Notes: a model not told the origin generated them from the sequence alone. Counted from the first letter of the stretch, positions 17,530-62,895 are shown. The stretch is 64,000 bases of DNA from an uncultured beta proteobacterium (GCA_963782495.1 CAWAJU010000005.1:204260-268259); one strand, 5' to 3'. A program made the numbers and translations.

Positions 17530-20244
17530 CTAGTTCAGGCGCCCATGACAATGCTTGTATTTCTTGCCACTGCCGCACGGGCAGGGGTCGTTGCGCCCCA
17601 CCTTGGGCACGCCGGAATCGAGCGCTGCCATGGCCATAGGCATGGCGGCCTGGGCCAGCGCCACATCCGGGTCGGCATGCTGATATTGCACGTTGGCCGG
17701 GCCTTCATGTTGCTCGACCGCCTGTACATCTTCCTCGGTGCGGACCTGCACGGTAGTGGTAATGCGGGTGACTTCGATCTTGATCGCATCGAGCATGGCA
17801 GAGAACAATTCGAATGCTTCGCGTTTGTATTCCTGCTTGGGATCCTTTTGCGCGTAGCCGCGCAGGTGGATGCCCTGGCGCAGATGGTCAAGCGCGGCCA
17901 GATGCTCACGCCAGTGGGTGTCCATGCTCTGCAGCATTACGGCCTTCTCGAAATGACGCAGCACCTCGGCCCCGACTGCCAGCTCCTTGGCCGCATAAGC
18001 GGCATCCGCCTCGACGCACACCTTGTCGCGCAGGCCTTTCTCGTCCAGCGTCTTGTCCGCATTGAGCCATTCCTGCAGGGGCAGTCTGGATCCGAATTCA
18101 GCCTCGATGGCTCTTTCCGCGCCTTCCACATCCCACTGTTCTTCCATCGAATCGCGTGGAATGTGGGTATCGATCACCGTATTGATCACGTCATGGCGCA
18201 TTGCAGTGATGGTCTCGTCGATATTTTCGCTGGCGAGTAATTCGTTGCGCTGCTCGTAGATGACCTTGCGCTGGTCGTTGGACACATCGTCATATTCCAG
18301 AAGCTGTTTGCGGATATCAAAGTTGCGTGCCTCAACCTTGCGTTGCGCGTTCTCAATCGCGCGCGACACCCAGGGATGTTCGATGGCTTCGCCCTCGGGC
18401 AGCTTGAGCCGGTTCATAATCGCCGCCACGCGGTCGGAGGCAAAAATCCGCAGCAGGGGATCGTCCAGAGCGAGGTAGAAACGCGACGAGCCGGGATCGC
18501 CCTGACGCCCGGCGCGGCCGCGCAATTGGTTGTCCACGCGGCGCGATTCGTGCCGTTCGGTGCCGATGATGTGCAGGCCGCCGGCGGCGAGCACGGCGTC
18601 ATGACGCGGCTGCCATTCAGCCTTGAGCTCGGCGCGCTTCTGCTCCTTCTCGGCCGGCGAGAGACTGGCGTCATCGTCGATGACATCCTGTTGGCGCTGA
18701 ATGCTGCCGCCCAGCACGATGTCGGTCCCGCGACCCGCCATGTTGGTGGCGATGGTGATACCGCCGGTCGCACCAGCCTGTGCGACGATTTCGGCTTCCT
18801 TGGCATGCTGCTTGGCGTTCAGCACCTGGTGCGGCAACTTCTCCTTCTGCAGCAGACCGGAAAGGTACTCGTTGGTTTCGATCGATGTAGTGCCGACCAG
18901 AACCGGCTGGCCGCGGCCATGGCACTCGCGGATATCCTTGATCACGGCCTGGAATTTTTCCGTAGTGGTGAGGAATACCTGGTCATGCATGTCCTCGCGG
19001 ATCATGTCGCGGTGGGTGGGGATCACCACGGTTTCCAGGTTGTAGATAGACTGGAATTCGTAGGCTTCGGTGTCGGCCGTGCCGGTCATGCCGGCGAGCT
19101 TGCCGTACATGCGGAAATAGTTCTGGAAAGTGATCGACGCAAGGGTCTGGTTTTCCTTCTGGATCGCCACGCCCTCCTTGGCCTCAACGGCCTGGTGCAG
19201 GCCCTCCGACCAGCGGCGCCCTGTCATCAGGCGCCCGGTGAATTCGTCGACGATGACGACCTCATTGTTTTGCACCACATAATGCTGATCACGGTGATAT
19301 ACCGAGAACGCGCGCAGGGCGGCGTTGACATGGTGCATCAGACGGATGTTGGCGGCGTCATACAGGCTGCCGCCGCGGGGCAGCAGCCCCATGTCCGTCA
19401 GAAGCTGTTCGATCTTTTCGTGACCGGATTCGGAAATGATGACCGAATGGGCCTTTTCGTCCACCCAGTAGTCGCCGACTTCGCTCTTTTCTTCGGCCTG
19501 CCGACTCAGCTTGGGCGGAATGGCGTTGACGCTGGTGTAGAGCTCGGTGCTGTCCTCGGACTGGCCGGAGATGATCAGCGGCGTGCGCGCCTCGTCGATC
19601 AGGATCGAATCGACCTCGTCGACGATCGCATAAGCCAGACCGCGCTGGACCTTTTCCTCCATCTGGTAAACCATGTTGTCGCGCAGGTAGTCAAAGCCGA
19701 ATTCGTTGTTGGTGCCGTAGGTGATGTCAGCAGCGTAGGCGGCCTGTTTCTCCTCGTGGGACATCTGCGAAAGGTTGACGCCGACCGTCAGGCCGAGGAA
19801 CCGGTAAATGCGCCCCATCCAATCGGCGTCGCGCTGGGCCAGATAGTCGTTGACCGTCACCACGTGCACGCCCTTGCCGGTCAGCGCATTGAGATAGGCC
19901 GCCAAGGTTGCCACCAAGGTCTTGCCCTCGCCGGTGCGCATCTCGGAAATCTTTCCATCATGCAGCACCATGCCACCTATCATTTGCACGTCATAATGGC
20001 GCATGCCAAGCGCGCGGCGGCTGCCTTCGCGTACGACCGCAAAGGCCTCGGCCAAAAGCTTGTCGACCGGCTCGCCGTTGGCAATGCGCTCCTTGAACGC
20101 GGCGGTCTTGGCGCTCAGTTCCGCGTCGGTGAGTTTTTCCAGCGCCGCCTCATGGGCGTTGATCGCCGCGACCTTTTGCCGGTATTGTTTAACCAGCCGG
20201 TCGTTGCGGCTGCCGAATATTTTTTTTGCCAGGGTTTGCAGCAT
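17530..20244 (-). CDS. secA: Preprotein translocase ATPase SecA (canonical, full length)
   Basis: 904 aa. MRTGEGKT Walker [29 protein letters not shown], and the C-terminal zinc motif [14 protein letters not shown]. Confidence 0.97.
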
Positions 20245-20322
20245 GGATAGCCTGAATGAGTTAGTTTCTTGCAGGAAAATCAGAGAATTTTATCATAACG
20301 TGCAAGACCATCTGGTTAGCGC

Positions 20323-52614: not shown

Positions 52615-53463
52615 ATGCTGAACAAACTGTTTCGTCCGGTGCAATTCTACCCAAGGTTGACAAGAAACCCGATTAGACGGCCAACATATATTGATTGCCT
52701 TGTGCGCAAAGCCTGGGCCAGCTTGCTGCTCGGACTGGTTCTTGCATTGCCTGCGCGGGCAGATGTGGCGGATACCCTGATCCGGGTCAAGGCCGGCGTC
52801 GTGGGCATAGGCACCTACCAGCCCGGTCGCAGTCCGAGCGGGCAACTCAAGGGCACCGGTTTCGTAGTCGGAGACGGCCAGACCATCGCCACCTGCTATC
52901 ACATCGTCAAACCCCTGCTTGACGTGGCCCACAACGAAACGTGGGCGGTATTTGTCGGTCAGGGCCGGGAAGTCCATTACCGCGTGGCCAAGGTGACCGC
53001 CACCGATCCCGCGCATGATCTGGCGCTGTTGCGCTTCGAGGGCAATGCCCTGCCCGCCCTGAAATTGGGCGACATGGACCAGATCCGCGAGGGCGACCAA
53101 CTCTATTTCACGGGCTATCCGATAGGCTCAATATTGGGCTTGTATGCAGCCACACACCGGGCCGGTCTCGCGGCCATTGTCCCCATCTACACGCCGCTGC
53201 CGCGAGCCAGCGAGTTGAATGCCCGCACCATCCGCCAGGCCTCCGACCCATTTCGCGTTTTCCAGCTCGACGCCATCGCCTATCCGGGCAACAGCGGTAG
53301 TCCTTTGTGGCAGCCGGAAAGCGGTGTCGTCATGGGCGTGGTGAATTCAGTCTTTGTCAAAGGTTCAAAAGAAGCCGCACTTACCAACCCCAGCGGGATT
53401 TCTTTCGCGATTCCGGTCGATCATGTCCGCGCATTGATGGATCGGGCCGGAGCGTACAAGTAG
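52615..53463 (+). CDS. Trypsin-like (S1C) serine protease, secreted
   Basis: His (ATCYHIV), Asp (DLALLRF) and Ser (GNSGSPLW) triad context. The start may be GTG 52702, just before the signal-like WASLLLGLVLALPARA. Confidence 0.75.
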   Translation: MLNKLFRPVQFYPRLTRNPIRRPTYIDCLVRKAWASLLLGLVLALPARADVADTLIRVKAGVVGIGTYQPGRSPSGQLKGTGFVVGDGQTIATCYHIVKPLLDVAHNETWAVFVGQGREVHYRVAKVTATDPAHDLALLRFEGNALPALKLGDMDQIREGDQLYFTGYPIGSILGLYAATHRAGLAAIVPIYTPLPRASELNARTIRQASDPFRVFQLDAIAYPGNSGSPLWQPESGVVMGVVNSVFVKGSKEAALTNPSGISFAIPVDHVRALMDRAGAYK

Positions 53464-53479
53464 GGCGTAATGCGACACC

Positions 53480-54784
53480 CTATTCAACCCGGTTGAGCAG
53501 GTCCAGAGCGGTCGTCGCCATCAGCTGCATCTGCTCCCCGTCGACAATATAGGGGGGCATGAAGTAGACCGCATTGCCTATGGGCCGCATCAACACCCCG
53601 AGGTCCAGGGCCTGCAGGTGCCAGCGTAGCGAGAAGCCGGGTTGCGCATCCTTTACATCGAATGCCCAAATCATGCCCAGATGGCGGAAGAAGCTTACCC
53701 GCGGATGGGCTGACACCTCTGCCAGCAGTTCCTGGAAGATCGCCGCTTTGGCCCGGTTGGCGTCCAATACCTGGTCCGATTCGAATATGTCCAGCACTGC
53801 GCACGCTGCGCGGCAAGCCAGCGGGTTGCCGGTATAGGAATGGGAATGGAGAAAGCCTCTGGCGGTTGCGTCCCCGTAGAACGCGGCATAGATATCATCC
53901 GTAGTCTGCACACAGGACAAGGGCAGATAGCCCCCAGTGATGCCCTTGGACAGGCAGAGAAAGTCGGGGCGGACGTTTGCCTGTTCGCAGGCAAACAAGG
54001 TGCCGGTGCGGCCAAACCCAACCGCGATTTCATCGGCAATCAGATGGACCTGGTAGCGATCGCAAATTTCCCGTGCCCGGCCCAGGTAGATCGGGTGATA
54101 CATGGCCATCCCGGCGGCACCCTGGACCAAGGGTTCGAGGATTAAGGCTGCGGTGTCGTTTGCGCGCTCCGCAAGACAGACTTCCAAGGCGTTGGCTGCT
54201 CTCAGGGCGTAGGCGTCAGCGGATTCCCCCGTCTCGGCGCCTCGGAAATCCGGCGTTGGCACTTGCCGGGTGCGCCGCAACAGAGGCGCGTAAACGTCCC
54301 TGAACAAGGCCACGTCGGTGACGGACAGGGCGCCCACGGTTTCCCCGTGATAACCGTTCTTCAGGCTGATAAAGCCAATCTTGTCCGGCTTGCCGACGTT
54401 GCGCCAATAGTGAAAACTCATCTTCAGCGCGATTTCGGTCGCGCATGCGCCATCCGAGGCAAAGAACGCATGGCCCAGGCCGCTCAGCTGCGCAAGCCGC
54501 TCCGACAATTCCACTGCTGGCGGGTGCGTGCAGCCTGCGAGCATGACATGCTCGATTTTGCCGAGTTGGTCGACCAGAGCCGCATTGATGCGCGGATTGG
54601 CATGGCCGAACAGATTGACCCACCAACTGGAAATCGCATCGAGATAGCGCCTGCCCGATTCATCGATAAGCCACGCGCCCTCGCCCCGAACTATCGCCAG
54701 AGGGGGCGTTGATTCGAGCGCTTTCATCTGGGTGCAGGGATGCCAGAGAAACTGGCGCGAACGGGCCTGAAGCAAGCTGGGCAT
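53480..54784 (-). CDS. bioA: Adenosylmethionine-8-amino-7-oxononanoate aminotransferase
   Basis: ORF 53480..54934 trimmed to MPSLLQARSRQFLWHPCTQMK. Class-III aminotransferase with LSKGITGGYLPLS (PLP lysine). Confidence 0.9.
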   Translation of the reverse strand: MPSLLQARSRQFLWHPCTQMKALESTPPLAIVRGEGAWLIDESGRRYLDAISSWWVNLFGHANPRINAALVDQLGKIEHVMLAGCTHPPAVELSERLAQLSGLGHAFFASDGACATEIALKMSFHYWRNVGKPDKIGFISLKNGYHGETVGALSVTDVALFRDVYAPLLRRTRQVPTPDFRGAETGESADAYALRAANALEVCLAERANDTAALILEPLVQGAAGMAMYHPIYLGRAREICDRYQVHLIADEIAVGFGRTGTLFACEQANVRPDFLCLSKGITGGYLPLSCVQTTDDIYAAFYGDATARGFLHSHSYTGNPLACRAACAVLDIFESDQVLDANRAKAAIFQELLAEVSAHPRVSFFRHLGMIWAFDVKDAQPGFSLRWHLQALDLGVLMRPIGNAVYFMPPYIVDGEQMQLMATTALDLLNRVE

Positions 54785-55224
54785 GGATGCAAGCAAAACT
54801 GATACGCAGACCCCATTGTATTCGCCCTGGCGCGAGGAACTCACAACTGGAGACACCGCACAACCCGGTCCCAAGTGGAAAACCGCCGCCGTTCGTCGGC
54901 GCATTGTAAAGCGAATTAACCGGAAAAACGCCAAGCTCTTCGTCGGCTTTCCGCCAAGCTTGATGGCGCACTGTCGGCAGTGACTTCTTCTCCCTCTGTT
55001 TCACGCCGGTCCGTACGCGTTTCGATCTGCGCCGCGTATTGATTTTCAAACGTTTTCTTGCCGCCTCAACCAGATGGGCAAAACGCTTGCCGCGGACCCG
55101 TTTTCAATCTTTAAAGACACCCTTTTATCTTGTTCACAACCCCGGGTTTTCTGGCACGGAAATCTTGTTCAAGTCATGAATATCACGGTCGATAACTCCG
55201 GTAGGCAATAACAAAAAACCTGAA

Positions 55225-56667
55225 ATGCAAATCCCGGTTGCCCTGTCCTCGCAGTACCTGCCCAGGTCGCAGACTCTGGCGACCACTGACGCCCTTTGTA
55301 CTGCGTTGTCCGCCGAACAGTATCTGCAGCTGCAGGCTGAGGTATTGGGTCGCGGCCAATTTGCCGAGGCGGCAACCGCACTCGCCCAGCAACTTGCCTG
55401 CAGACTGGCTTGCGATCGAGTCAGTATCGGCTGGCTCAGCCGCCATGGAATGCTTGTAGCGGCGACCTCCTATGTAGCAGAATTACACGTGCGTCAGGAA
55501 ACCGCCCGGCTGGTCGGCGCTGCAATGGATGAGGCGGCCGAGCAGGGCAGCGCCCTGATCCACCCCGAGCCGGAAGGCGGCAAGCCTCGAATTCGGCTGG
55601 CCCATGAGGAATTGGCACGGCGCCAAGGCTATGCGCTGTGCACCGTCCCTTTAGTTCACGGCGGGACCGTGGTCGGCGCTTTCACGCTGGAACGCCGGGA
55701 GGGGTGCTTCAGCGTTGAAGAAGGGATGCTTTACGAACATCTCGCCTGCATGCTGGCGCCTGTCCTCGCACTCAAACACGAGAACGACCTTTCGCTCTGG
55801 CAACGCGGCCTGATCGCCGCCAAGATCCGCCTGCGCTGGGGTACCGGCACAGCAGTAAGCAAGCCGCACATTTTCGGGCTTACTGCGGGCTTTGCTCTGC
55901 TCGCTTTCATCGCACTGTTCCCCTTTACCTATAGCGTCAGCGCGCCAGCGCGCCTCGAAGGCGCGTTCCAGCGAGTATTGTCCGCGCCCACTGATGGCTT
56001 CTTGAGCAAGGTCTACGTGCGCCCCGGCGATCGGGTGAAAGCCGGACAGATGCTGGCCGAACTGGCCGATCAGGACCTGCTGGTCGAGCAACGCGGCTTG
56101 CAAGCCGAGCTGGCCCAGAACGAAAACGCGCTGGTTGCCGCACAGGCCAAGGGAGATCGAGCCGAATACGGCATCAACCAAGGCAAGGCCGAGGCGGCAC
56201 AGGCCAAGTTGGAACTGATCCAGCAACAACTGGAACGTGCGCATGTGCGCGCGCCATTTGACGGCGTGATTATCAAGGGCGACCTGAGCCAGTCGGTCGG
56301 GGCTCCGCTGGAGCGCGGTGCCGAGCTCCTCACGCTGGCTCCGGACACTGGCTACCGGGTGATGATCGAAGCGGAAGAGAGCGAAGTGGCCGAACTGAAG
56401 CCCGGCCAGAGCGGCCGCTTAATCCTCGCGGCCATGCCTGTCCAAACCATGCCGATCCGATTGGAGCGGATCACTTCACTTGCGACCACGGAGAATGGCC
56501 GGCATTACTTTGCCGTGTATGCAGCCCTGGACTGCAGGCAGCCCGGCCTGCGCCCGGGCATGCAGGGCGTGGCCAGGATAGCGGTGGACCGGCGCCCCAT
56601 GCTGATGAACTGGCTCACGCGCAGTTTCAGTTGGTTGCGCTTCAAGCTCTGGTCCTGGGGCGCCTGA
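55225..56667 (+). CDS. GAF-domain / transmembrane / HlyD-like periplasmic adaptor protein
   Basis: 480 aa. N-terminal about 190 aa is GAF-like (VSIGWLS...ALCTVPLVHGGTVVGAFTLER). One TM helix (IFGLTAGFALLAFIALFPF). Then a lipoyl/coiled-coil/beta-barrel pattern typical of the HlyD/MFP family (GFLSKVYVRPGDRVKAGQMLAEL, VRAPFDGVI). Confidence 0.75.
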   Translation: MQIPVALSSQYLPRSQTLATTDALCTALSAEQYLQLQAEVLGRGQFAEAATALAQQLACRLACDRVSIGWLSRHGMLVAATSYVAELHVRQETARLVGAAMDEAAEQGSALIHPEPEGGKPRIRLAHEELARRQGYALCTVPLVHGGTVVGAFTLERREGCFSVEEGMLYEHLACMLAPVLALKHENDLSLWQRGLIAAKIRLRWGTGTAVSKPHIFGLTAGFALLAFIALFPFTYSVSAPARLEGAFQRVLSAPTDGFLSKVYVRPGDRVKAGQMLAELADQDLLVEQRGLQAELAQNENALVAAQAKGDRAEYGINQGKAEAAQAKLELIQQQLERAHVRAPFDGVIIKGDLSQSVGAPLERGAELLTLAPDTGYRVMIEAEESEVAELKPGQSGRLILAAMPVQTMPIRLERITSLATTENGRHYFAVYAALDCRQPGLRPGMQGVARIAVDRRPMLMNWLTRSFSWLRFKLWSWGA

Positions 56668-56668
56668 C

Positions 56669-58819
56669 ATGGCAACGGATTCACTGTTCAGCCCCAACTG
56701 GTATCGGGTTTGCGCCTTGCATCCGCAACTGGGCGGGCATGTCCGGGTCCAGCGTCAACCCAGCCGCGACCGCCAATGGTATGTGCTCATCGATGGCGCA
56801 AGCGGCCGTCAGCATCGGGTCAATGACCTTGCCTACCAGTTTGTCGGGCGTTGCAATGGCCGCTACAACGCGCAGCAGATCTGGGAAAGCCTGTTCGAAA
56901 CCCTGGCCGATGATACTCCCACCCAGGATGAGATCGTCCGTCTGATCGGCCAGTTGGTTGAAGCTGGTTTACTGCAAGTGGAAAAACAGTCGGATGTGGA
57001 AGCCTTGTTCGAACGCCATCAGGAACGCGCCGGCAGGATTCGCCGCAGCGCCCTCAACCCCCTGTCGTTCCGTATCCCCTTGTTCAACCCGGCTTCACTG
57101 CTGCAACGCCTTGATGGTGTCGCCCAGCAGATCTTCAGCCCCTGGGTGCTTTGGCTGTGGCTGGTCATCATGGGCATTGCACTGATGACGGCATTTGCCC
57201 ACTGGAATGAACTGCGCGCCCAAGCTGCCACCACCATGCTGACGCCGCGCTATCTCATCCTGCTGTGGCTGTGTTTTCCGCTCATCAAGGCGTTGCATGA
57301 ACTGGCTCATGGTCTGGCGGTTCGCCGCTGGGGCGGCGAGGTCACGCAGATGGGTGTGGCCCTGCTACTCCTGGTGCCTGCGCCCTACGTCGACGCGTCG
57401 GCGGCCTCGGCCTTCCGTCCAGCCTACCAGCGGGTCATGGTGAGCGCGGCCGGAATCATGACCGAGTTGCTGCTTGCCGCCTTAGCCCTAATGGTCTGGC
57501 TCAATGTCGAGCCTGGCCTGGTACGTGACATCGCCTTCGTCTTCCTGTTCATCGGTAGCGTCTCGACCGTGCTGTTCAACGGCAATCCGCTGCTGCGCTT
57601 TGATGGCTATTACATGTTGAGCGACGCGCTCAATCTGCCCAACCTGGCCACACGCAGCAGCCGTTACTGGGCCTACCTGGCGCAACGCTATCTGCTCAAG
57701 CTACCCGATCCGGCATCTGTCGAGCCCGGCCACGGGGAGCGCTTCTGGCTCTTGCTCTACGCGCCCCTGGCGTGGGCTTACCGACTGCTCATCAGCCTGG
57801 TGATCGCATTCTGGATCGCTTCAAAATCCGCCCTTCTGGGGCTGGCTGTGGGCCTGTACATGCTCCACGGCAGTCTGGCAAAACCGATTTACCGCGTGTT
57901 GCACTTCGCCTTCTTCTCCCCAAGCTTGGGCAACCGGCGCCTGCAAGCCCGAGCCCTCGCGTCTGCGACCCTGGTCCTGGCGGTCGTGGCGCTGGCGGCC
58001 TTGCCCATACCTTCCAACACTACCGCTGAAGGCGTGGTCTGGCTGCCGGAAAAGGCTCAATTGCGCGCCGAGACCGGCGGCTTCGTAGTCAAACTACTGG
58101 CCCGCGACGGCGAGCGCGTGCGGACCGGTCAACTGATCGCCGTTCTGGAAGATCCCACCCTGATCACCCAGCAGCAGGATCTGCAAAGCCAGTATGACGC
58201 CTTGCGCACCGAATATTTCGAATCCCTGCTGAGCAATCCGCTGAAAGCCAGGAACGCCGACCAGGCGCTGCAGAAAATCCGACCGGAACTCGAGCGTAGC
58301 GAGGACAAGCTCGCGCAACTCAAGGTGCGCGCCCAAACCGACGGCACCCTCGTCATGCCCGGACAGCAGGACCTGCCGGGCGTGTTCGTGAAGCAGGGCG
58401 CCCTGCTCGGCTATGTGTTCAGTCCCGATCAGGTGAGGGTACGCGCAGTGGTCGACGAAAAGGATATTGCCTTGGTTCGCAAGCGCACGCGGGCAGTCGA
58501 TGTACTGCTGGCAGAAAACGCCCGGCAGCCTCTGCGCGCCAGCCTCGCGCAAGAGACCCCGGCAGCCACGCACACCCTGCCCAGTCCCGCGCTCGGCGAC
58601 CGGGCAGGCGGCAGCCAGATTACCGATCCCACTGACCAGGACGGCGTGCAAACCCTGGAGCCGGTATTTCTGGTGGACCTGTTACTGCCGCGCGATGCCA
58701 CGCGTCGCGTGGGTGGGCGCGCCTGGGTGCATTTCGACCATGGCACCGAACCGCTTGCTCTGCAATGGGGCCGCCGTCTCCGGCAGCTCTTCCTCAAGCA
58801 TTTCGACCAAGCGGCTTGA
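56669..58819 (+). CDS. PqqD-like (RRE) domain / M50 site-2-protease-like membrane metalloprotease / HlyD-like domain fusion
   Basis: 716 aa, starting 2 nt after the upstream stop. N-terminal WYVLIDGASGRQHRVNDLAYQFVGRCNGRYNAQQIWESL...LVEAGLL is PqqD-like. HELAHG (HExxH) in a TM helix plus NGNPLLRFDGYY (M50 second motif). C-terminal GFVVKLLARDGERVRTGQLIAVLED plus a coiled coil is HlyD-like. Confidence 0.75.
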   Translation: MATDSLFSPNWYRVCALHPQLGGHVRVQRQPSRDRQWYVLIDGASGRQHRVNDLAYQFVGRCNGRYNAQQIWESLFETLADDTPTQDEIVRLIGQLVEAGLLQVEKQSDVEALFERHQERAGRIRRSALNPLSFRIPLFNPASLLQRLDGVAQQIFSPWVLWLWLVIMGIALMTAFAHWNELRAQAATTMLTPRYLILLWLCFPLIKALHELAHGLAVRRWGGEVTQMGVALLLLVPAPYVDASAASAFRPAYQRVMVSAAGIMTELLLAALALMVWLNVEPGLVRDIAFVFLFIGSVSTVLFNGNPLLRFDGYYMLSDALNLPNLATRSSRYWAYLAQRYLLKLPDPASVEPGHGERFWLLLYAPLAWAYRLLISLVIAFWIASKSALLGLAVGLYMLHGSLAKPIYRVLHFAFFSPSLGNRRLQARALASATLVLAVVALAALPIPSNTTAEGVVWLPEKAQLRAETGGFVVKLLARDGERVRTGQLIAVLEDPTLITQQQDLQSQYDALRTEYFESLLSNPLKARNADQALQKIRPELERSEDKLAQLKVRAQTDGTLVMPGQQDLPGVFVKQGALLGYVFSPDQVRVRAVVDEKDIALVRKRTRAVDVLLAENARQPLRASLAQETPAATHTLPSPALGDRAGGSQITDPTDQDGVQTLEPVFLVDLLLPRDATRRVGGRAWVHFDHGTEPLALQWGRRLRQLFLKHFDQAA

Positions 58820-58827
58820 CGACTGAC

Positions 58828-60816
58828 ATGGCCTGCCTTCTACCCACCTCCACGTTGCCGCAACCCGGCCTGATCTGGGGTCTTTATCCGGAAAAACCCC
58901 GGCCGGCCGGCGACCCGTCCTGGACCAGTCGTCTGAGCGCCTTATCCGCACGCTTTGCCAGGCCTGGTCTGCGCTTCCATACCGCAATCGCGATACGCTC
59001 CGAGGCACTGGAGCAGAGCCTGGGCAGTCAGGACAGCGCCGCCTTCGCCCAGGCGGTCAAAACGCTCAGGCAGGAGCTATCCCGCCGGGGCCTTACGCCC
59101 GAACTCATCACTCAAGCCTTCGCCCTGGTCAGTCTGGCCTGTCGGCGCCACCTCGGCCTGTCGCCGTTCACCGCCCAGCGGATCGCCGCGTCCATCATGT
59201 TGGAAAACCGGCTGGCGGAAATGGCCACTGGCGAGGGCAAGACCCTGGTTGCCGCCCTGGTTGCCGGGACCGGCGGGTTGGCAGGCATGCCCGTGCACGT
59301 GCTGACCGCCAATGATTATCTGGTGGCGCGCGATGCGGAAAGGCTTAAGCCCGTCTATGAATCGCTGGGGCTTGCGGTCGGCGCCGTGCAGCAAACCATG
59401 GACAGCCGCGCCCGGCGTGCCGCCTATGCCTGCGACATTACCTACTGCACGGCCAAGGAATTGGTCTTCGATTATTTGCGCGATCAGCCCTTGCGCGAGC
59501 GTACCGAGCTGGCCAGGCGCGCCGCGCGACTTGAAGGGCCAGCCGTTGCCGGCCCCAGCACCCTGCTGCGCGGCTTGTGCATGGCCGTGATCGATGAAGC
59601 AGACAGCATATTAATCGACGAGGCGCGCGTGCCCTTGGTCATTTCCGAATTGCACCACCAAGCCGACAAGCAGGAAGCCACGGTGCAACTGTTGCATCTG
59701 GCCACCGGTCTGCAACGGGGTAAAGACTTTCTCCTGGAAGTCCAAAGCCAGTCTGCGGCGCTGACCGAGGCCGGACGCGCGCAGCTGGCGGCACACGCCG
59801 GAAACTTGCATCCCGCCTGGCGTAATCGCCGTCTCGGCGAAGAGAATCTTTGCCTCGCTCTTGCCGCTCTGCACCTGTTCCAGCGCGACCAACATTATCT
59901 GGTACGCGCCGGCGCCGTGCATATCATCGATGAAACCACCGGCCGTCTCGCGACCGGACGTACCTGGTCGCGTGGCCTGCATCAACTCATCGAGATCAAG
60001 GAGAACTGCCAGCCCAGTGGCGAAACCGTCACCCGGGCGCAAATCACTTACCAACGCTTCTTCCCCCGGTATCTCAGGCTGTGCGGGATGAGCGGCACAC
60101 TCGCCGAATCGCGCGGCGAACTGGCGCGCATCTACAGGCTGCCAGTTGTGCGCGTTCCGCTGCGCCTGCCCAACCGCCGCATTGAAACCAGTCATCGCGT
60201 CTTTCTCAAGCGCAGCCAGCAATGGCAGGCAGTGACCGAGCGGGCGGGCGAGCTGCTGCGCTCCCAGCGGCCGGTGTTGATAGGCACGGACTCGGTCGCC
60301 GATTCCGAAAGTCTGTCCGCGCACCTGGTCCGGGCCGGACTGCCGCATGCCGTGCTCAATGCGCGCAATGATGGAGAGGAAGCCGCCATTGTCGCCCTGG
60401 CCGGCCAAGCCGGCCGCATTACCGTCGCCACCAACATGGCCGGCCGCGGCACTGACATTCCCCTTGGTCCGGGCGTCGCCGCGCGCGGCGGACTGCACGT
60501 GATCGGTTGTCAGATGAACAGCGCGCGACGCATCGATCGCCAACTCAAGGGCCGCTGTGCACGCCAGGGCGACCCCGGCAGTGCGGAATCCGTGCTGAGT
60601 CTGGACGCCCCGCTCGTCGCACGTAACCTGCCCAAGGATCTACTGCACCTGGCCGGAAAACTGGCCGGGCGCGCGAACGGCCGACTGCCTGGCTGGCTGG
60701 GGAGACTGCTCGCCGCCCTGGCGCAGCGTCTGGAAGAATCCCGCCATCAGGGACAGCGCGCCCTGCTGCTGCATCAGGATCAGCAAATCGACCGCCAGCC
60801 GGTGTTCAGGGACTAG
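58828..60816 (+). CDS. Truncated SecA-like ATPase (second SecA paralogue)
   Basis: ORF 58765..60816 with start taken at MACLLPTS (58828). [38 protein letters not shown] and RQLKGRCARQGDPGS align block by block with the canonical SecA at 17530..20244. It ends about 70 aa after NBD2. Confidence 0.8.
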   Translation: MACLLPTSTLPQPGLIWGLYPEKPRPAGDPSWTSRLSALSARFARPGLRFHTAIAIRSEALEQSLGSQDSAAFAQAVKTLRQELSRRGLTPELITQAFALVSLACRRHLGLSPFTAQRIAASIMLENRLAEMATGEGKTLVAALVAGTGGLAGMPVHVLTANDYLVARDAERLKPVYESLGLAVGAVQQTMDSRARRAAYACDITYCTAKELVFDYLRDQPLRERTELARRAARLEGPAVAGPSTLLRGLCMAVIDEADSILIDEARVPLVISELHHQADKQEATVQLLHLATGLQRGKDFLLEVQSQSAALTEAGRAQLAAHAGNLHPAWRNRRLGEENLCLALAALHLFQRDQHYLVRAGAVHIIDETTGRLATGRTWSRGLHQLIEIKENCQPSGETVTRAQITYQRFFPRYLRLCGMSGTLAESRGELARIYRLPVVRVPLRLPNRRIETSHRVFLKRSQQWQAVTERAGELLRSQRPVLIGTDSVADSESLSAHLVRAGLPHAVLNARNDGEEAAIVALAGQAGRITVATNMAGRGTDIPLGPGVAARGGLHVIGCQMNSARRIDRQLKGRCARQGDPGSAESVLSLDAPLVARNLPKDLLHLAGKLAGRANGRLPGWLGRLLAALAQRLEESRHQGQRALLLHQDQQIDRQPVFRD

Positions 60817-60819
60817 GCC

Positions 60820-62895
60820 ATGATGTATCGATTGTTCCGCGGTTATCTTCCCAAGGCGGTCAATCCGCAGTTCTATCTCACCCGCATGCTGCGCCGCATG
60901 GATCCGCTACGCGCAGCATCCGAGCTGTTACGTTCAGCTTTGAATGTCCTGACAGACGACCTGCTGATCGTCGACACCCAGGGCCGCGTGGTGTTGGCGA
61001 ACCGGCGATTTGCCGATCTGCTGGGCCAGACTCGGCAAACCCTGATCGGGCAGTCGCTCGATACCCTGGCATGGCAGGACAGCCATGGGGAGCCACTTGG
61101 CGCTGGCACCTATCCATGGGAAATCGCGCTCCAGCGGGGCGCTACGACGCGCCTCAACAGGTTATGGCTGACCGATAGTCACGGCGTACGCCGCGCCTTC
61201 CTGGCCAATTGTTCGCCCCTTCCCGTGGGCGACGGCAAGTGCGGGGGCGCCATGATTTCGCTGGATGAGATTGCCGGACTTGACGCAGACAAGATCGAAC
61301 CGCATCGCCCGGTGCATAAAGTCGATGGCGGGACCTACGCCGCAAGCCTGGCCCTGGCCGACACGGCCCATGAGATCCGTTCGTCCCTCAACGCGACGCT
61401 GGGCTTTACCGAGTTGCTGCGCCGCGGCCAGTTCAAGGACGACGCTGACTACCGGTGCCACCTAGATATCGTTCACTCCAGCAGCAGGCATTTGCTGGAA
61501 CTTGTCAACGGCATTCTGGACATTTCCAGTGCGGAATCTGGCGCGTTGGAGGTGAAACTGGGCGACTGCGCACCGTACCGGATTGCGCACGAAGTCGTGC
61601 AAGCCGAGAGCGTCAGGGCTTGCGGAAGGCGCGCGTCCATTGAACTGGTCTGCCCCGGTTCGATTCCCGCATGTATCCAGAGCGACCCGGCGCGCCTGCA
61701 CCAGATTGTCGGCCATCTCGTCCGCCATGTGACCGCGTATTCAAGCGGGGGCGACGTCAAGCTTGTCCTGCGCTTCATCGCGGCGCGTCCTCAGGCACAG
61801 CTTCTGTTCGAAATCAGCAGCAACGAGACAGCAGAAGGCAAGCCGAAAACCCCGATTGAACCGTCAATCCAGGCTGGCCTGGCAACGGCCAGGCGCTTGG
61901 GCGGCGCCGGCCTGGGACTGACACTGAGCCTTCGACTAGCCCGCGCCATCGGTGCTGAACTGGTCATGAGACGCGTCCCTGGCGTTGCCCGAACCTTTGT
62001 GCTCAAGCTGCCCGCCGGCCCGATTGAAGCCATCAGGCTGATCACTCCGGAACAGGCGGCGAGCCAGCAGGGCGGCGCGAATCCGGCGGTTGGTTCACAC
62101 TGGAAACTTTCCCCCGCGCGCGTGCTGATTGTGGATGACGCTCCCGAAAACCGCGAACTGGTGCGCCTGGTCATGGAGGATGCGGGAGCCGTGACCGAAC
62201 AGGCGGAAAACGGCCTCACCGCGGTGGAAAAGGCGCGATCCCGACACTACGACCTCATTCTCATGGATCTGCATATGCCCGGCGCGGATGGCGCCACCGC
62301 AACTCGCCTGCTGCGTCAATATGGCCTGAAGGCACCCATCGTGGCGCTGACCGCGCACTCCTTGAAGAACCTGGAACAGGAGCTTATTGATGCTGGTTTC
62401 ACGGCCTATCTCGCCAAGCCGATAGAAATAGACCGATTGTTGGCCACCGACGCCTCGCTGGTCGGTGGCACCCGTGTTTGCCAGCCGCTTAACAAGCTCG
62501 CTGCGCTGCCGATTAAACCCGTATACGGCAGCAACCTGCCGCAACTGCCCATCGTGTCGCGCCTGGCAGGCAACCCGCGCCTGCAAGCCGCGATCAACAA
62601 ATTTCTTGCCCGCCTTGGCGGCCAGCTAAGCGCGATTGAACTGGCCTGGCAGGCCCGCGATTTCGAGACACTCGCCAGCCTGGCGCACTGGCTAAAGGGA
62701 GCGGGGGGCACAGTGGGGTTCGATTCGTTCAACGAGCCCGCCAAGAGATTGGAACAGCTGTCCAAAACAAAACAGGCGGACGACATGGAGGAAGTGCTAA
62801 TGGAATTGAAGGACATATCTGCACGCATTGTGCGGCCACAGGTCGCGGCCAGTACTTCAACCCCGGGTCCCGAGCAGACACGGGTCAAGCCCTAG
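60820..62895 (+). CDS. Hybrid sensor histidine kinase (PAS - HisKA - HATPase - REC - HPt)
   Basis: 691 aa. PAS-like N-terminus, H-box AHEIRSSLNATLGF, G-box GGAGLGLTLS, receiver VLIVDDAPENRE...LMDLHMPGADG, and a C-terminal HPt-like segment (LAHWLKGAGGTVG). Confidence 0.88.
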   Translation: MMYRLFRGYLPKAVNPQFYLTRMLRRMDPLRAASELLRSALNVLTDDLLIVDTQGRVVLANRRFADLLGQTRQTLIGQSLDTLAWQDSHGEPLGAGTYPWEIALQRGATTRLNRLWLTDSHGVRRAFLANCSPLPVGDGKCGGAMISLDEIAGLDADKIEPHRPVHKVDGGTYAASLALADTAHEIRSSLNATLGFTELLRRGQFKDDADYRCHLDIVHSSSRHLLELVNGILDISSAESGALEVKLGDCAPYRIAHEVVQAESVRACGRRASIELVCPGSIPACIQSDPARLHQIVGHLVRHVTAYSSGGDVKLVLRFIAARPQAQLLFEISSNETAEGKPKTPIEPSIQAGLATARRLGGAGLGLTLSLRLARAIGAELVMRRVPGVARTFVLKLPAGPIEAIRLITPEQAASQQGGANPAVGSHWKLSPARVLIVDDAPENRELVRLVMEDAGAVTEQAENGLTAVEKARSRHYDLILMDLHMPGADGATATRLLRQYGLKAPIVALTAHSLKNLEQELIDAGFTAYLAKPIEIDRLLATDASLVGGTRVCQPLNKLAALPIKPVYGSNLPQLPIVSRLAGNPRLQAAINKFLARLGGQLSAIELAWQARDFETLASLAHWLKGAGGTVGFDSFNEPAKRLEQLSKTKQADDMEEVLMELKDISARIVRPQVAASTSTPGPEQTRVKP

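Follow-up and report, generated by a model that had tools for sequence, protein, structure and literature searches.

Why would a bacterium that already encodes a complete SecA carry a second, shorter SecA-like protein close by, and what would such a protein move? The question is raised by a stretch of 64,000 nucleotides (nt) from an uncultured beta proteobacterium (GCA_963782495.1 CAWAJU010000005.1:204260-268259), here called the window, in which a canonical SecA gene and a gene for a SecA-like protein of 662 amino acids (aa) both occur. We favour, with moderate confidence, the reading that the SecA-like protein is an ATP-driven polypeptide motor that powers an exporter which spans the cell envelope and has its genes in this operon. 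The exporter would resemble a type I secretion system (T1SS) and would handle giant proteins with an N-terminal LEPR-XLL motif as its cargo, the cargo gene apparently having been deleted at this locus. This reading builds on domain content, family conservation, synteny, the association with presumptive cargo genes, and the genes that are missing here relative to colinear relatives.

The SecA-like protein and its family

The features of the SecA-like gene, and the canonical SecA used as comparator, are as follows (coordinates are those of the window; NBD1 and NBD2, nucleotide-binding domains 1 and 2; PPXD, preprotein cross-linking domain):

58828..60816 (+): truncated SecA paralogue ('secondary SecA_DEAD domain protein'), 662 aa, supported by the open reading frame (ORF), Pfam matches and 36% identity to the canonical SecA of the window
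58855..58896 (+): family-specific N-terminal motif LPQPGLIWGLYPEK, residues 10–23, with no SecA counterpart; candidate docking motif
59230..59604 (+): core of NBD1, from Walker A GEGKT (135–139) to the DEAD box (256–259), including a 17-aa insertion before DEAD
59674..59994 (+): PPXD, essentially full length (Pfam SecA_PP_bind 4–110/110)
60172..60618 (+): NBD2 (P-loop_SecA), with motifs V and VI (RQLKGRCARQGDPG is motif VI) and without the variable insert of proteobacterial SecA
60691..60792 (+): C-terminal helix, residues 622–655, corresponding to the beginning of the scaffold helix in SecA and aligning to SecA residues ~625–662
17530..20244 (−): canonical housekeeping SecA, 904 aa, with all five Pfam SecA domains

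The longest frame at this position runs from 58765 to 60816 (+; 683 aa), and an internal ATG at 58828 gives the 662-aa product. The in-frame ATG at 58765 overlaps the upstream gene; the start at 58828 lies 8 nt past the stop of that gene, and agrees with the N-termini of homologues as well as with an identical 662-aa protein in public databases.

Pfam matches to SecA_DEAD (283.9 bits, E = 1.8e-84), SecA_PP_bind (77 bits, E = 2.1e-21, covering model positions 4–110 of 110) and P-loop_SecA (155.3 bits, E = 2.2e-45) all lie above their cut-offs and describe a DEAD-type motor with the PPXD inserted in NBD1. No Pfam match to SecA_SW or SEC-C was found in the 662-aa protein. BLASTP aligns residues 53–660 with residues 27–662 (of 904) of the window SecA at 36% identity; because the alignment ends at SecA residue 662, the SecA-like protein stops inside the long scaffold helix, of which the first ~35–45 residues are kept. 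An AlphaFold2 model (predicted local distance difference test, pLDDT, 73.6) likewise ends in a single helix (622–655); its pLDDT falls below 50 for residues 1–31 and for residues ~220–274 (59487..59650), the latter spanning the family-specific insertion of ~17 aa in NBD1, which is variable in sequence. The top Foldseek match of the model is SecA (1tf5, E = 1e-43), with SecA-N68 (5k9t) at E = 2.2e-37 (TMt 0.59). The protein is a genuine SecA paralogue; it falls short of the equivalog models for canonical SecA (TIGR00963, 498.4 bits vs. a cut-off of 800; NF009538, 491.8 vs. 814), whereas the window's canonical SecA scores 1295 bits with NF009538 and 1129 bits with TIGR00963. Walker B reads DEAD in the SecA-like protein vs. 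DEVD in the window SecA. Distances between shared landmarks, SecA-like protein vs. window SecA, are:

Walker A to DEAD: 121 vs. 104 aa
PLVIS to HYLV (PPXD): 87 vs. 99 aa
Motif V to motif VI: 40 vs. 76 aa
Residues after LSLDAPL: 72 vs. 313

These measurements bear on an original prediction, made by eye from the window alone, in which NBD1, the DEAD box and NBD2 were described as conserved and the protein was said to stop about 70 aa past NBD2, inside the scaffold helix. Both descriptions hold: the Pfam domains are present with helicase motifs that are invariant across the family, and 72 residues follow LSLDAPL, with the alignment ending at SecA 662. The reported absence of the helical wing, two-helix finger and zinc tail is borne out by the lack of SecA_SW and SEC-C matches, the BLASTP end point and the single terminal helix of the model; neither alignment and profile searches nor structure prediction brought out a wing or a two-helix finger. 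Two size estimates need correction. A strongly shortened PPXD (~75 vs. ~130 aa) is ruled out, as the measured difference is only 12 aa and the Pfam model is fully covered; likewise, the N-terminal part without SecA counterpart is not ~95 but ~50 aa long, given that the Pfam and BLAST alignments start at residue ~52–53, equivalent to SecA residue 27 and model position 17. The 17-aa insertion in NBD1, the missing variable insert of NBD2 and the invariant N-terminal motif had not been part of that prediction.

Relatives of the SecA-like protein are numerous. At E ≤ 1e-20, a word-indexed search gave 7974 proteins, canonical SecAs among them; the top 120 share 52–100% identity with the query and are nearly all 640–710 aa long, with Thiobacillus, Rhodocyclaceae, Sterolibacteriaceae and Burkholderiales metagenome-assembled genomes among the named sources. 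Database names of homologues vary ('SecA', 'DEAD/DEAH box helicase', 'hypothetical'). Among the best 150 clusters at 50% identity (exhaustive phmmer), nearly all proteins measure ~640–690 aa, the outliers being apparent fragments and three longer proteins. A scan of a genome collection yielded 324 relatives in beta-, gamma-, alpha- and delta-proteobacteria, Nitrospira, Haliangium and others, including a homologue in Candidatus Nitrospira defluvii (L058) with 48% identity. The truncation is therefore no sign of decay but a trait conserved throughout a large family whose members measure ~660 aa. Alignment of 24 members (52–74% identity) shows GEGKT, DEAD, SGT, TNxAGRGTD and RQLxGRxARxG to be invariant, as are R644 and D651 in the C-terminal helix; the N-terminal motif has the consensus LPxPGLxWGxYPE, with P13, G14, G18, P21 and E22 invariant. 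With its motifs intact, the protein is presumably an active ATPase.

The SecA2 models of NCBIfam are all matched below their cut-offs (TIGR03714, 408.6 bits vs. 930; TIGR04221, 431.2 vs. 725; TIGR04397, 455.3 vs. 1085; NF012136, 347.9 vs. 1100). At the DNA level, the SecA-like gene resembles secA only in patches of 34–122 nt (70–82%) over motif-coding stretches, which points to an ancient paralogy; together with the truncated length, kept in nearly all of the best 150 clusters, this rules out a recent pseudogenised duplicate of secA, of which the original prediction had likewise seen no sign. Its further proposal, of a SecA-derived motor unlikely to work on SecYEG in the canonical way, is supported by the missing parts, the fixed length, the sub-threshold model scores and the operon context described below. 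Long ORFs also lie antisense to the SecA-like gene (59611..60543, −; 310 aa), secA (18343..20250, +; 635 aa) and the first gene of the operon (55651..56244, −; 197 aa); these are a by-product of high GC content at third codon positions (0.72–0.78) and not genes.

The operon and its candidate cargo

Three genes follow one another on the plus strand with stop-to-start spacings of 1–8 nt; the SecA-like gene comes last and is translationally coupled to its two upstream partners:

55225..56667 (+): cytoplasmic GAF domain, one transmembrane helix (216–234) and a periplasmic HlyD/RND-type adaptor; 480 aa, first gene of the operon
56669..58819 (+): PqqD-like domain, resembling RiPP recognition elements (RREs; RiPP, ribosomally synthesised and post-translationally modified peptide), site-2-protease-like HExxH membrane metalloprotease and periplasmic HlyD-type domain; 716 aa, immediately before the SecA-like gene

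HlyD_3, HlyD_D23 and RND_mfp matches are found in both upstream proteins. The 716-aa protein matches Pfam PqqD, Peptidase_M50, HlyD_D23 and HlyD_3; its M50 score lies under the cut-off (23.5 vs. 27.2), which marks it as a distant M50 relative, and the daptide_HExxH model NF041824 gives 151.7 bits, below the cut-off of 300. The HExxH motif (210–214) and the NPxxxxDG signature of site-2 proteases, FNGNPLLrfDGYY/FNGNPLLRFDGYY (303–315), are both kept across 57 homologues, and the hydropathy profile points to 5–6 or more transmembrane segments. The PqqD domain is matched by Pfam in 24 of 26 members of this partner family, and the family profile matches the PqqD structure 3g2b over its whole length (E = 8e-5); on these profile matches, the assignment of the N-terminus as PqqD-like is robust.

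The gene order GAF-HlyD, PqqD/M50/HlyD, SecA-like recurs in nearly all of ~80 related loci with enough flanking sequence. A fourth, small HlyD-type adaptor (220–530 aa) often follows the SecA-like gene in related loci, and about six carry a gene for a TolC-type outer membrane efflux protein (OEP). No ABC transporter was found among the neighbours that were domain-checked, many ORFs in the related loci not having been scanned. The arrangement agrees with computational work on secondary SecA_DEAD proteins of Gram-negative bacteria (Kamneva, Poudel & Ward, 2015, PLoS One; PMC4452313), whose genes sit with GAF-HlyD, Peptidase_M50-HlyD and HlyD/biotin-lipoyl genes and sometimes with OEP genes, the additional HlyD/biotin-lipoyl adaptor and OEP being frequent but not universal. 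A single contig of 1.93 Mb (Ga0315338_1000005) holds two complete GAF-HlyD/M50-HlyD/SecA-like operons ~290 kb apart (L003, L111), each beside a LEPR-XLL ORF of its own.

Clustering of neighbour genes for 80 genome loci brought out a giant ORF (1,000 to >3,300 aa, frequently running off the locus) that is very often the next gene after the SecA-like gene or the small adaptor. The N-terminus of these giant proteins comprises a basic stretch followed by EELEPRxL(F/Y/L)SAD; this region matches the LEPR-XLL model of NCBIfam (NF012209; 18.5–22.9 bits vs. a cut-off of 17) and is followed by DUF4347 (Pfam, 180–195 bits) and by cadherin-like, Big_9, VCBS or beta-helix repeats. The charged N-terminus (EELEPR...SAD) looks unlike a hydrophobic Sec signal peptide. 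Within the 58 loci that have at least 2.5 kb downstream, an EELEPRxLxSAD ORF starts within 5 kb in 31, and a giant repeat ORF is present on one or other side in 43. A reverse scan that began from cargo N-termini on metagenome contigs found a SecA-like gene in 23 of 39 loci with >4.5 kb upstream. PAS-GGDEF, GGDEF-EAL or hybrid-kinase genes are commonly next after the giant gene. We propose that the LEPR-XLL/DUF4347 giant proteins are the cargo of the SecA-like operon, and the cargo is most likely a surface adhesin under cyclic di-GMP (c-di-GMP) or two-component control.

The DUF4347 regions of these N-termini (L004:11975-12766, L085:6815-7609 and others) have invariant H..(I/V)(S/T)HG and L(L/I)(L/I)YGC motifs, which may recall the His/Cys dyad of caspase-like (clan CD) proteases; they could mark a self-processing or retention module. 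In six loci (L095, L129, L134, L140, L141 and L161) GAF-HlyD, M50-HlyD and a small adaptor (none in the short locus L095) directly precede the LEPR-XLL/DUF4347 gene, with no adjacent SecA-like gene; the small adaptor of L140 has a C-terminal, peptidoglycan-binding SPOR domain. The alphaproteobacterial isolate Yoonia litorea encodes a 908-aa protein with FG-GAP and RTX calcium-binding repeats after the SecA-like gene and small adaptor (L060:12967-15693), and a further giant repeat ORF upstream of the operon, an arrangement which suggests that cargo types may vary. The LEPRxLL motif is also found at the N-terminus of the 20,647- and 36,806-aa proteins of Chlorobium chlorochromatii (bioRxiv 10.64898/2026.03.19.712371). 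There, the horizontally acquired secA Cag_1676 belongs to the co-expression cluster of the giant LEPRxLL proteins Cag_663 and Cag_665; the authors propose other transporters and draw no link between the giants and secA (bioRxiv 10.64898/2026.03.19.712371). Chlorobi are among the phyla in which secondary SecA_DEAD proteins have been recorded, alongside Proteobacteria, Nitrospirae and others (PMC4452313). Cag_1676 could be such a protein, and the co-expression lends indirect support to the cargo proposal.

Downstream of the SecA-like gene, the window differs from its relatives:

60817..60870 (no strand): inferred deletion junction; relatives have the cargo gene and kinase codons 1–169 here, some also the fourth adaptor
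60820..62895 (+): hybrid histidine kinase PAS-HisKA-HATPase-REC-Hpt, 691 aa, without the N-terminal membrane/sensor region of its orthologues

Five Thiobacillus-type relatives (L004, L005, L006, L008 and L009) share the gene order of the window from an upstream trypsin-like peptidase and class-III aminotransferase through the three machine genes, and again downstream from the hybrid kinase to a REC-GGDEF gene. These relatives carry a LEPR-XLL/DUF4347 gene for a protein of 1,380–2,523 aa between the SecA-like gene and the kinase gene (843–852 aa). The kinase ORF of the window starts 3 nt past the stop of the SecA-like gene (60816), and in all five comparisons its alignment begins at orthologue residue 170/171, equivalent to window position 60871; it follows that the kinase is without the first ~169 residues (first transmembrane segment, sensor region and most of the second transmembrane segment), and no transmembrane segment is predicted in it. 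A cargo gene, a fourth HlyD/biotin-lipoyl adaptor and the LEPR motif are absent from the entire 64-kb window; many relatives have such an adaptor, and the two closest by SecA-like identity (75% and 72%) both retain adaptor and cargo gene. The simplest reading of these alignments is that a deletion removed the cargo gene along with the 5′ end of the kinase gene, which would leave three machine genes intact and yet without cargo at the locus. None of the three machine ORFs is shortened, and the two products that were aligned, the SecA-like protein and the protease, keep all checked family-conserved residues. Identities of the machine proteins to their relatives (63–70%) are close to those of flanking housekeeping-type genes.

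The REC-GGDEF response regulator (62912..64000+) runs off the end of the window and, with the kinase, constitutes a c-di-GMP output module beside the exporter operon. Upstream of the operon are genes for a secreted-type trypsin-like peptidase (52615..53463, +), with 70% identity in L004, and a class-III aminotransferase (53480..54934, −), with 73–80% identity in L004, L007 and L009; both represent local synteny, with no link to the exporter evident.

Proposed mechanism and alternative explanations

The SecA-like protein keeps the ATPase motor and the PPXD/NBD2 clamp, by which SecA binds and moves polypeptides, and has lost the parts that couple SecA to SecY (two-helix finger, distal scaffold and wing) and to SecB or the ribosome (C-terminal tail). 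From the missing parts together with the gene context, we infer that it does not use SecYEG. The motor would instead dock on its operon partners, possibly via the N-terminal motif, which is invariant and probably disordered. In the membrane metalloprotease, the cytoplasmic PqqD-like domain would read the N-terminal leader of the cargo, in the manner that RRE domains read RiPP leaders; the site-2-protease-like domain would probably cut the leader off, and may also give passage through the inner membrane. The clamp (PPXD and NBD2) would thread the unfolded chain from N- to C-terminus, and the HlyD-type domains of two or three adaptors would bridge the periplasm to a TolC-type channel. The GAF, kinase and GGDEF genes suggest second-messenger control, as for T1SS adhesins. 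Whether the family as a whole defines a distinct SecA-motor pathway without an ABC transporter (often with small adaptor and TolC), in which LEPR-XLL giants are the substrates and the 24-residue LEPRxLL motif is an export leader read by the PqqD-like domain, is in our judgement evenly balanced.

Several observations weigh against these proposals. The inner-membrane conduit is the weakest point of the mechanism: there is no proven inner-membrane protein channel among the operon products, and site-2 proteases are not known to conduct polypeptides. No TolC gene was found around the operon (~51–64 kb, the part of the window scanned for one); T1SSs often use a tolC that is encoded elsewhere. The proposed cargo is absent from the window, and the local genes may be idle or decaying. 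About a quarter of the related loci (15 of 58) have no giant gene within the available flank, and, among the 39 loci of the reverse scan, ~6 beyond those with a SecA-like gene carry GAF-HlyD and PqqD/M50/HlyD genes with no SecA-like gene adjacent, which implies that the gene for the motor may lie elsewhere, or that the system may not need one. The AlphaFold2 model is only moderate (pLDDT 73.6). No experimental work on any family member, and no functional follow-up on SecA_DEAD, DUF4347 or LEPR-XLL, was found in the literature searched; in Methylobacterium extorquens AM1, only the GAF gene is expressed in exponential phase (PMC4452313).

Four other explanations were weighed alongside export by the operon. 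It is improbable that the protein serves as a SecA2-type accessory ATPase that brings dedicated substrates, possibly the LEPR-XLL proteins themselves, to the housekeeping SecYEG, leaving the HlyD and M50 proteins to act later, at the step from periplasm to outer membrane. The complete motor and PPXD clamp, the placement of the clade as sister to actinobacterial SecA2 (PMC4452313), the presence of the SecA2 structures 6sxh and 4uaq among the matches (E ~1e-95 to 1e-104 by sequence, ~1e-37 to 1e-40 by fold) and the canonical SecA in the same window would all suit this role; however, the SecY-inserting two-helix finger, most of the scaffold and the wing are missing, the four SecA2 models of NCBIfam reach only 348–455 bits against cut-offs of 725–1100, the domain-searched neighbours include GAF-HlyD, PqqD/M50/HlyD and hybrid-kinase genes and no SecY2/Asp-type gene, and the cargo N-terminus is charged, by appearance unlike a hydrophobic Sec signal peptide. 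Regulated intramembrane proteolysis is the usual role of site-2 proteases, and the motor could feed the site-2-protease-like enzyme as AAA+ unfoldases feed their proteases, the output being a signal relayed by way of GAF, kinase and GGDEF proteins. The partner's retention of site-2-protease catalytic motifs, the GAF sensor domain in the operon and the hybrid kinase, REC-GGDEF, PAS-GGDEF and GGDEF-EAL genes nearby would suit this reading, but we regard it as quite improbable: a trans-envelope conduit is indicated by the two or three periplasmic HlyD-type domains per operon and by the TolC-type genes found at some loci, and the tight link to giant extracellular-type repeat proteins fits export better.

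A functionless leftover in this genome, heading for decay after loss of its cargo, is compatible with the export model at the level of the family, and agrees with the comparison to the five colinear relatives, against which the cargo gene and 169 codons of the kinase are missing (the two closest relatives, at 75% and 72%, keep adaptor and cargo), and with the lack of a LEPR motif throughout the 64 kb; alternatively, the apparent deletion could be an assembly artefact. We consider this unlikely, if still a real prospect. The three machine ORFs are full length, the SecA-like protein and the protease keep their checked conserved residues, and the 63–70% identities to relatives are similar to those of flanking housekeeping-type genes. 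Moreover, the view is limited to 64 kb of the genome, and the 15 of 58 loci that also have no adjacent giant gene, together with the contig on which two systems have separate cargoes, make a cargo gene elsewhere in the genome plausible. That the protein is a DEAD/DEAH-box nucleic-acid helicase, the name given to close homologues in several public records, is barely credible: Pfam DEAD is matched at 25.7 bits, under its cut-off of 26, and SecA_DEAD (283.9 bits) and SecA_PP_bind (77 bits) score far higher; RNA helicase structures are matched by Foldseek at E ~1e-7 and a TM-score of ~0.3, compared with 1e-43 for SecA; and the gene context is that of membrane transport.

If export by the operon is correct, SecA-type motors are not confined to the SecYEG pathway, and a stripped-down SecA, a leader-reading membrane protease and HlyD adaptors together move some of the largest bacterial proteins over both membranes. 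It would offer a concrete and testable route for the export of LEPR-XLL giant adhesin-like proteins, as well as a natural experiment on which parts of SecA suffice for polypeptide threading (motor and clamp, without the two-helix finger). The window locus is a typical family member with its presumed cargo gene lost, and its value is more modest than that of the pathway.

Comparison with known systems

The family was described computationally in 2015, and the finding of a second, SecA-like protein is therefore not itself new. Like the proteins of that study, the one described here occurs in addition to a canonical SecA, belongs to the SecA_DEAD proteins in which SecA_SW is missing or a mere fragment, and has GAF-HlyD and M50-HlyD neighbours; the locus of the window is without a fourth adaptor and without an adjacent large protein. 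A T1SS-like machine was already proposed then, with SecA_DEAD as ATPase and the M50 protein as membrane component (PMC4452313). PqqD, DUF4347, cadherin-type proteins, a specific cargo and an N-terminal motif are not named there (PMC4452313); apparently new are the link to LEPR-XLL/DUF4347 giants, the PqqD-like domain of the partner as a putative leader reader, and the disappearance of the cargo gene at this locus.

The protein shares NBD1, PPXD, NBD2, the start of the scaffold helix and all ATPase motifs with canonical SecA (E. coli, B. subtilis and T. maritima structures), but is without helical wing, two-helix finger, distal scaffold and SEC-C zinc tail, and the LPxPGLxWGxYPE N-terminus replaces SecA residues 1–26. 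It resembles the Gram-positive SecA2 proteins (mycobacterial, streptococcal/staphylococcal, Bacillus and Listeria types) in being a second, specialised paralogue of SecA. SecA2 proteins, however, measure ~760–790 aa and have a scaffold-type C-terminus (profiles 762–776 positions long), whereas the SecA-like protein reaches only model position ~550–600, and their gene neighbourhood, with SecY2, Asp proteins and glycosyltransferases in the aSec type, differs from the SecA-like operon. The same domain content, motor plus PPXD, is found in the engineered E. coli SecA-N68 (5k9t), a laboratory fragment with deregulated ATPase and no translocation; in contrast, the SecA-like family is natural and conserved, and has ~60 extra C-terminal residues as well as an N-terminal motif of its own. 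SecA_DEAD and PPXD modules without scaffold or wing have also been reported inside giant proteins of Omnitrophota and Actinobacteria, for which an export role was suggested (West-Roberts et al., 2023, bioRxiv 10.1101/2023.11.21.568195). Those modules are fused into the giant protein beside transmembrane segments, whereas the SecA-like protein is free-standing, at 662 aa, in an HlyD/M50 operon.

Similarity to the T1SSs of giant adhesins (HlyB/HlyD/TolC, LapA-type) lies in the HlyD adaptors, the TolC-type gene in some loci, the giant cadherin/Ig/RTX-like cargo and the c-di-GMP genes nearby. The difference is that a SecA-type motor and a site-2-protease-like membrane protein take the place of the ABC transporter, and that the conserved cargo signal (LEPR-XLL) is N-terminal, whereas T1SS signals are C-terminal. 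The 716-aa partner, lastly, recalls RiPP leader machinery in its PqqD-like N-terminus and its HExxH membrane protease (NF041824, 151.7 bits), a combination which suggests leader recognition followed by cleavage; unlike RiPP machinery, its presumed substrate is thousands of residues long, and the protease is fused to an HlyD-type domain.

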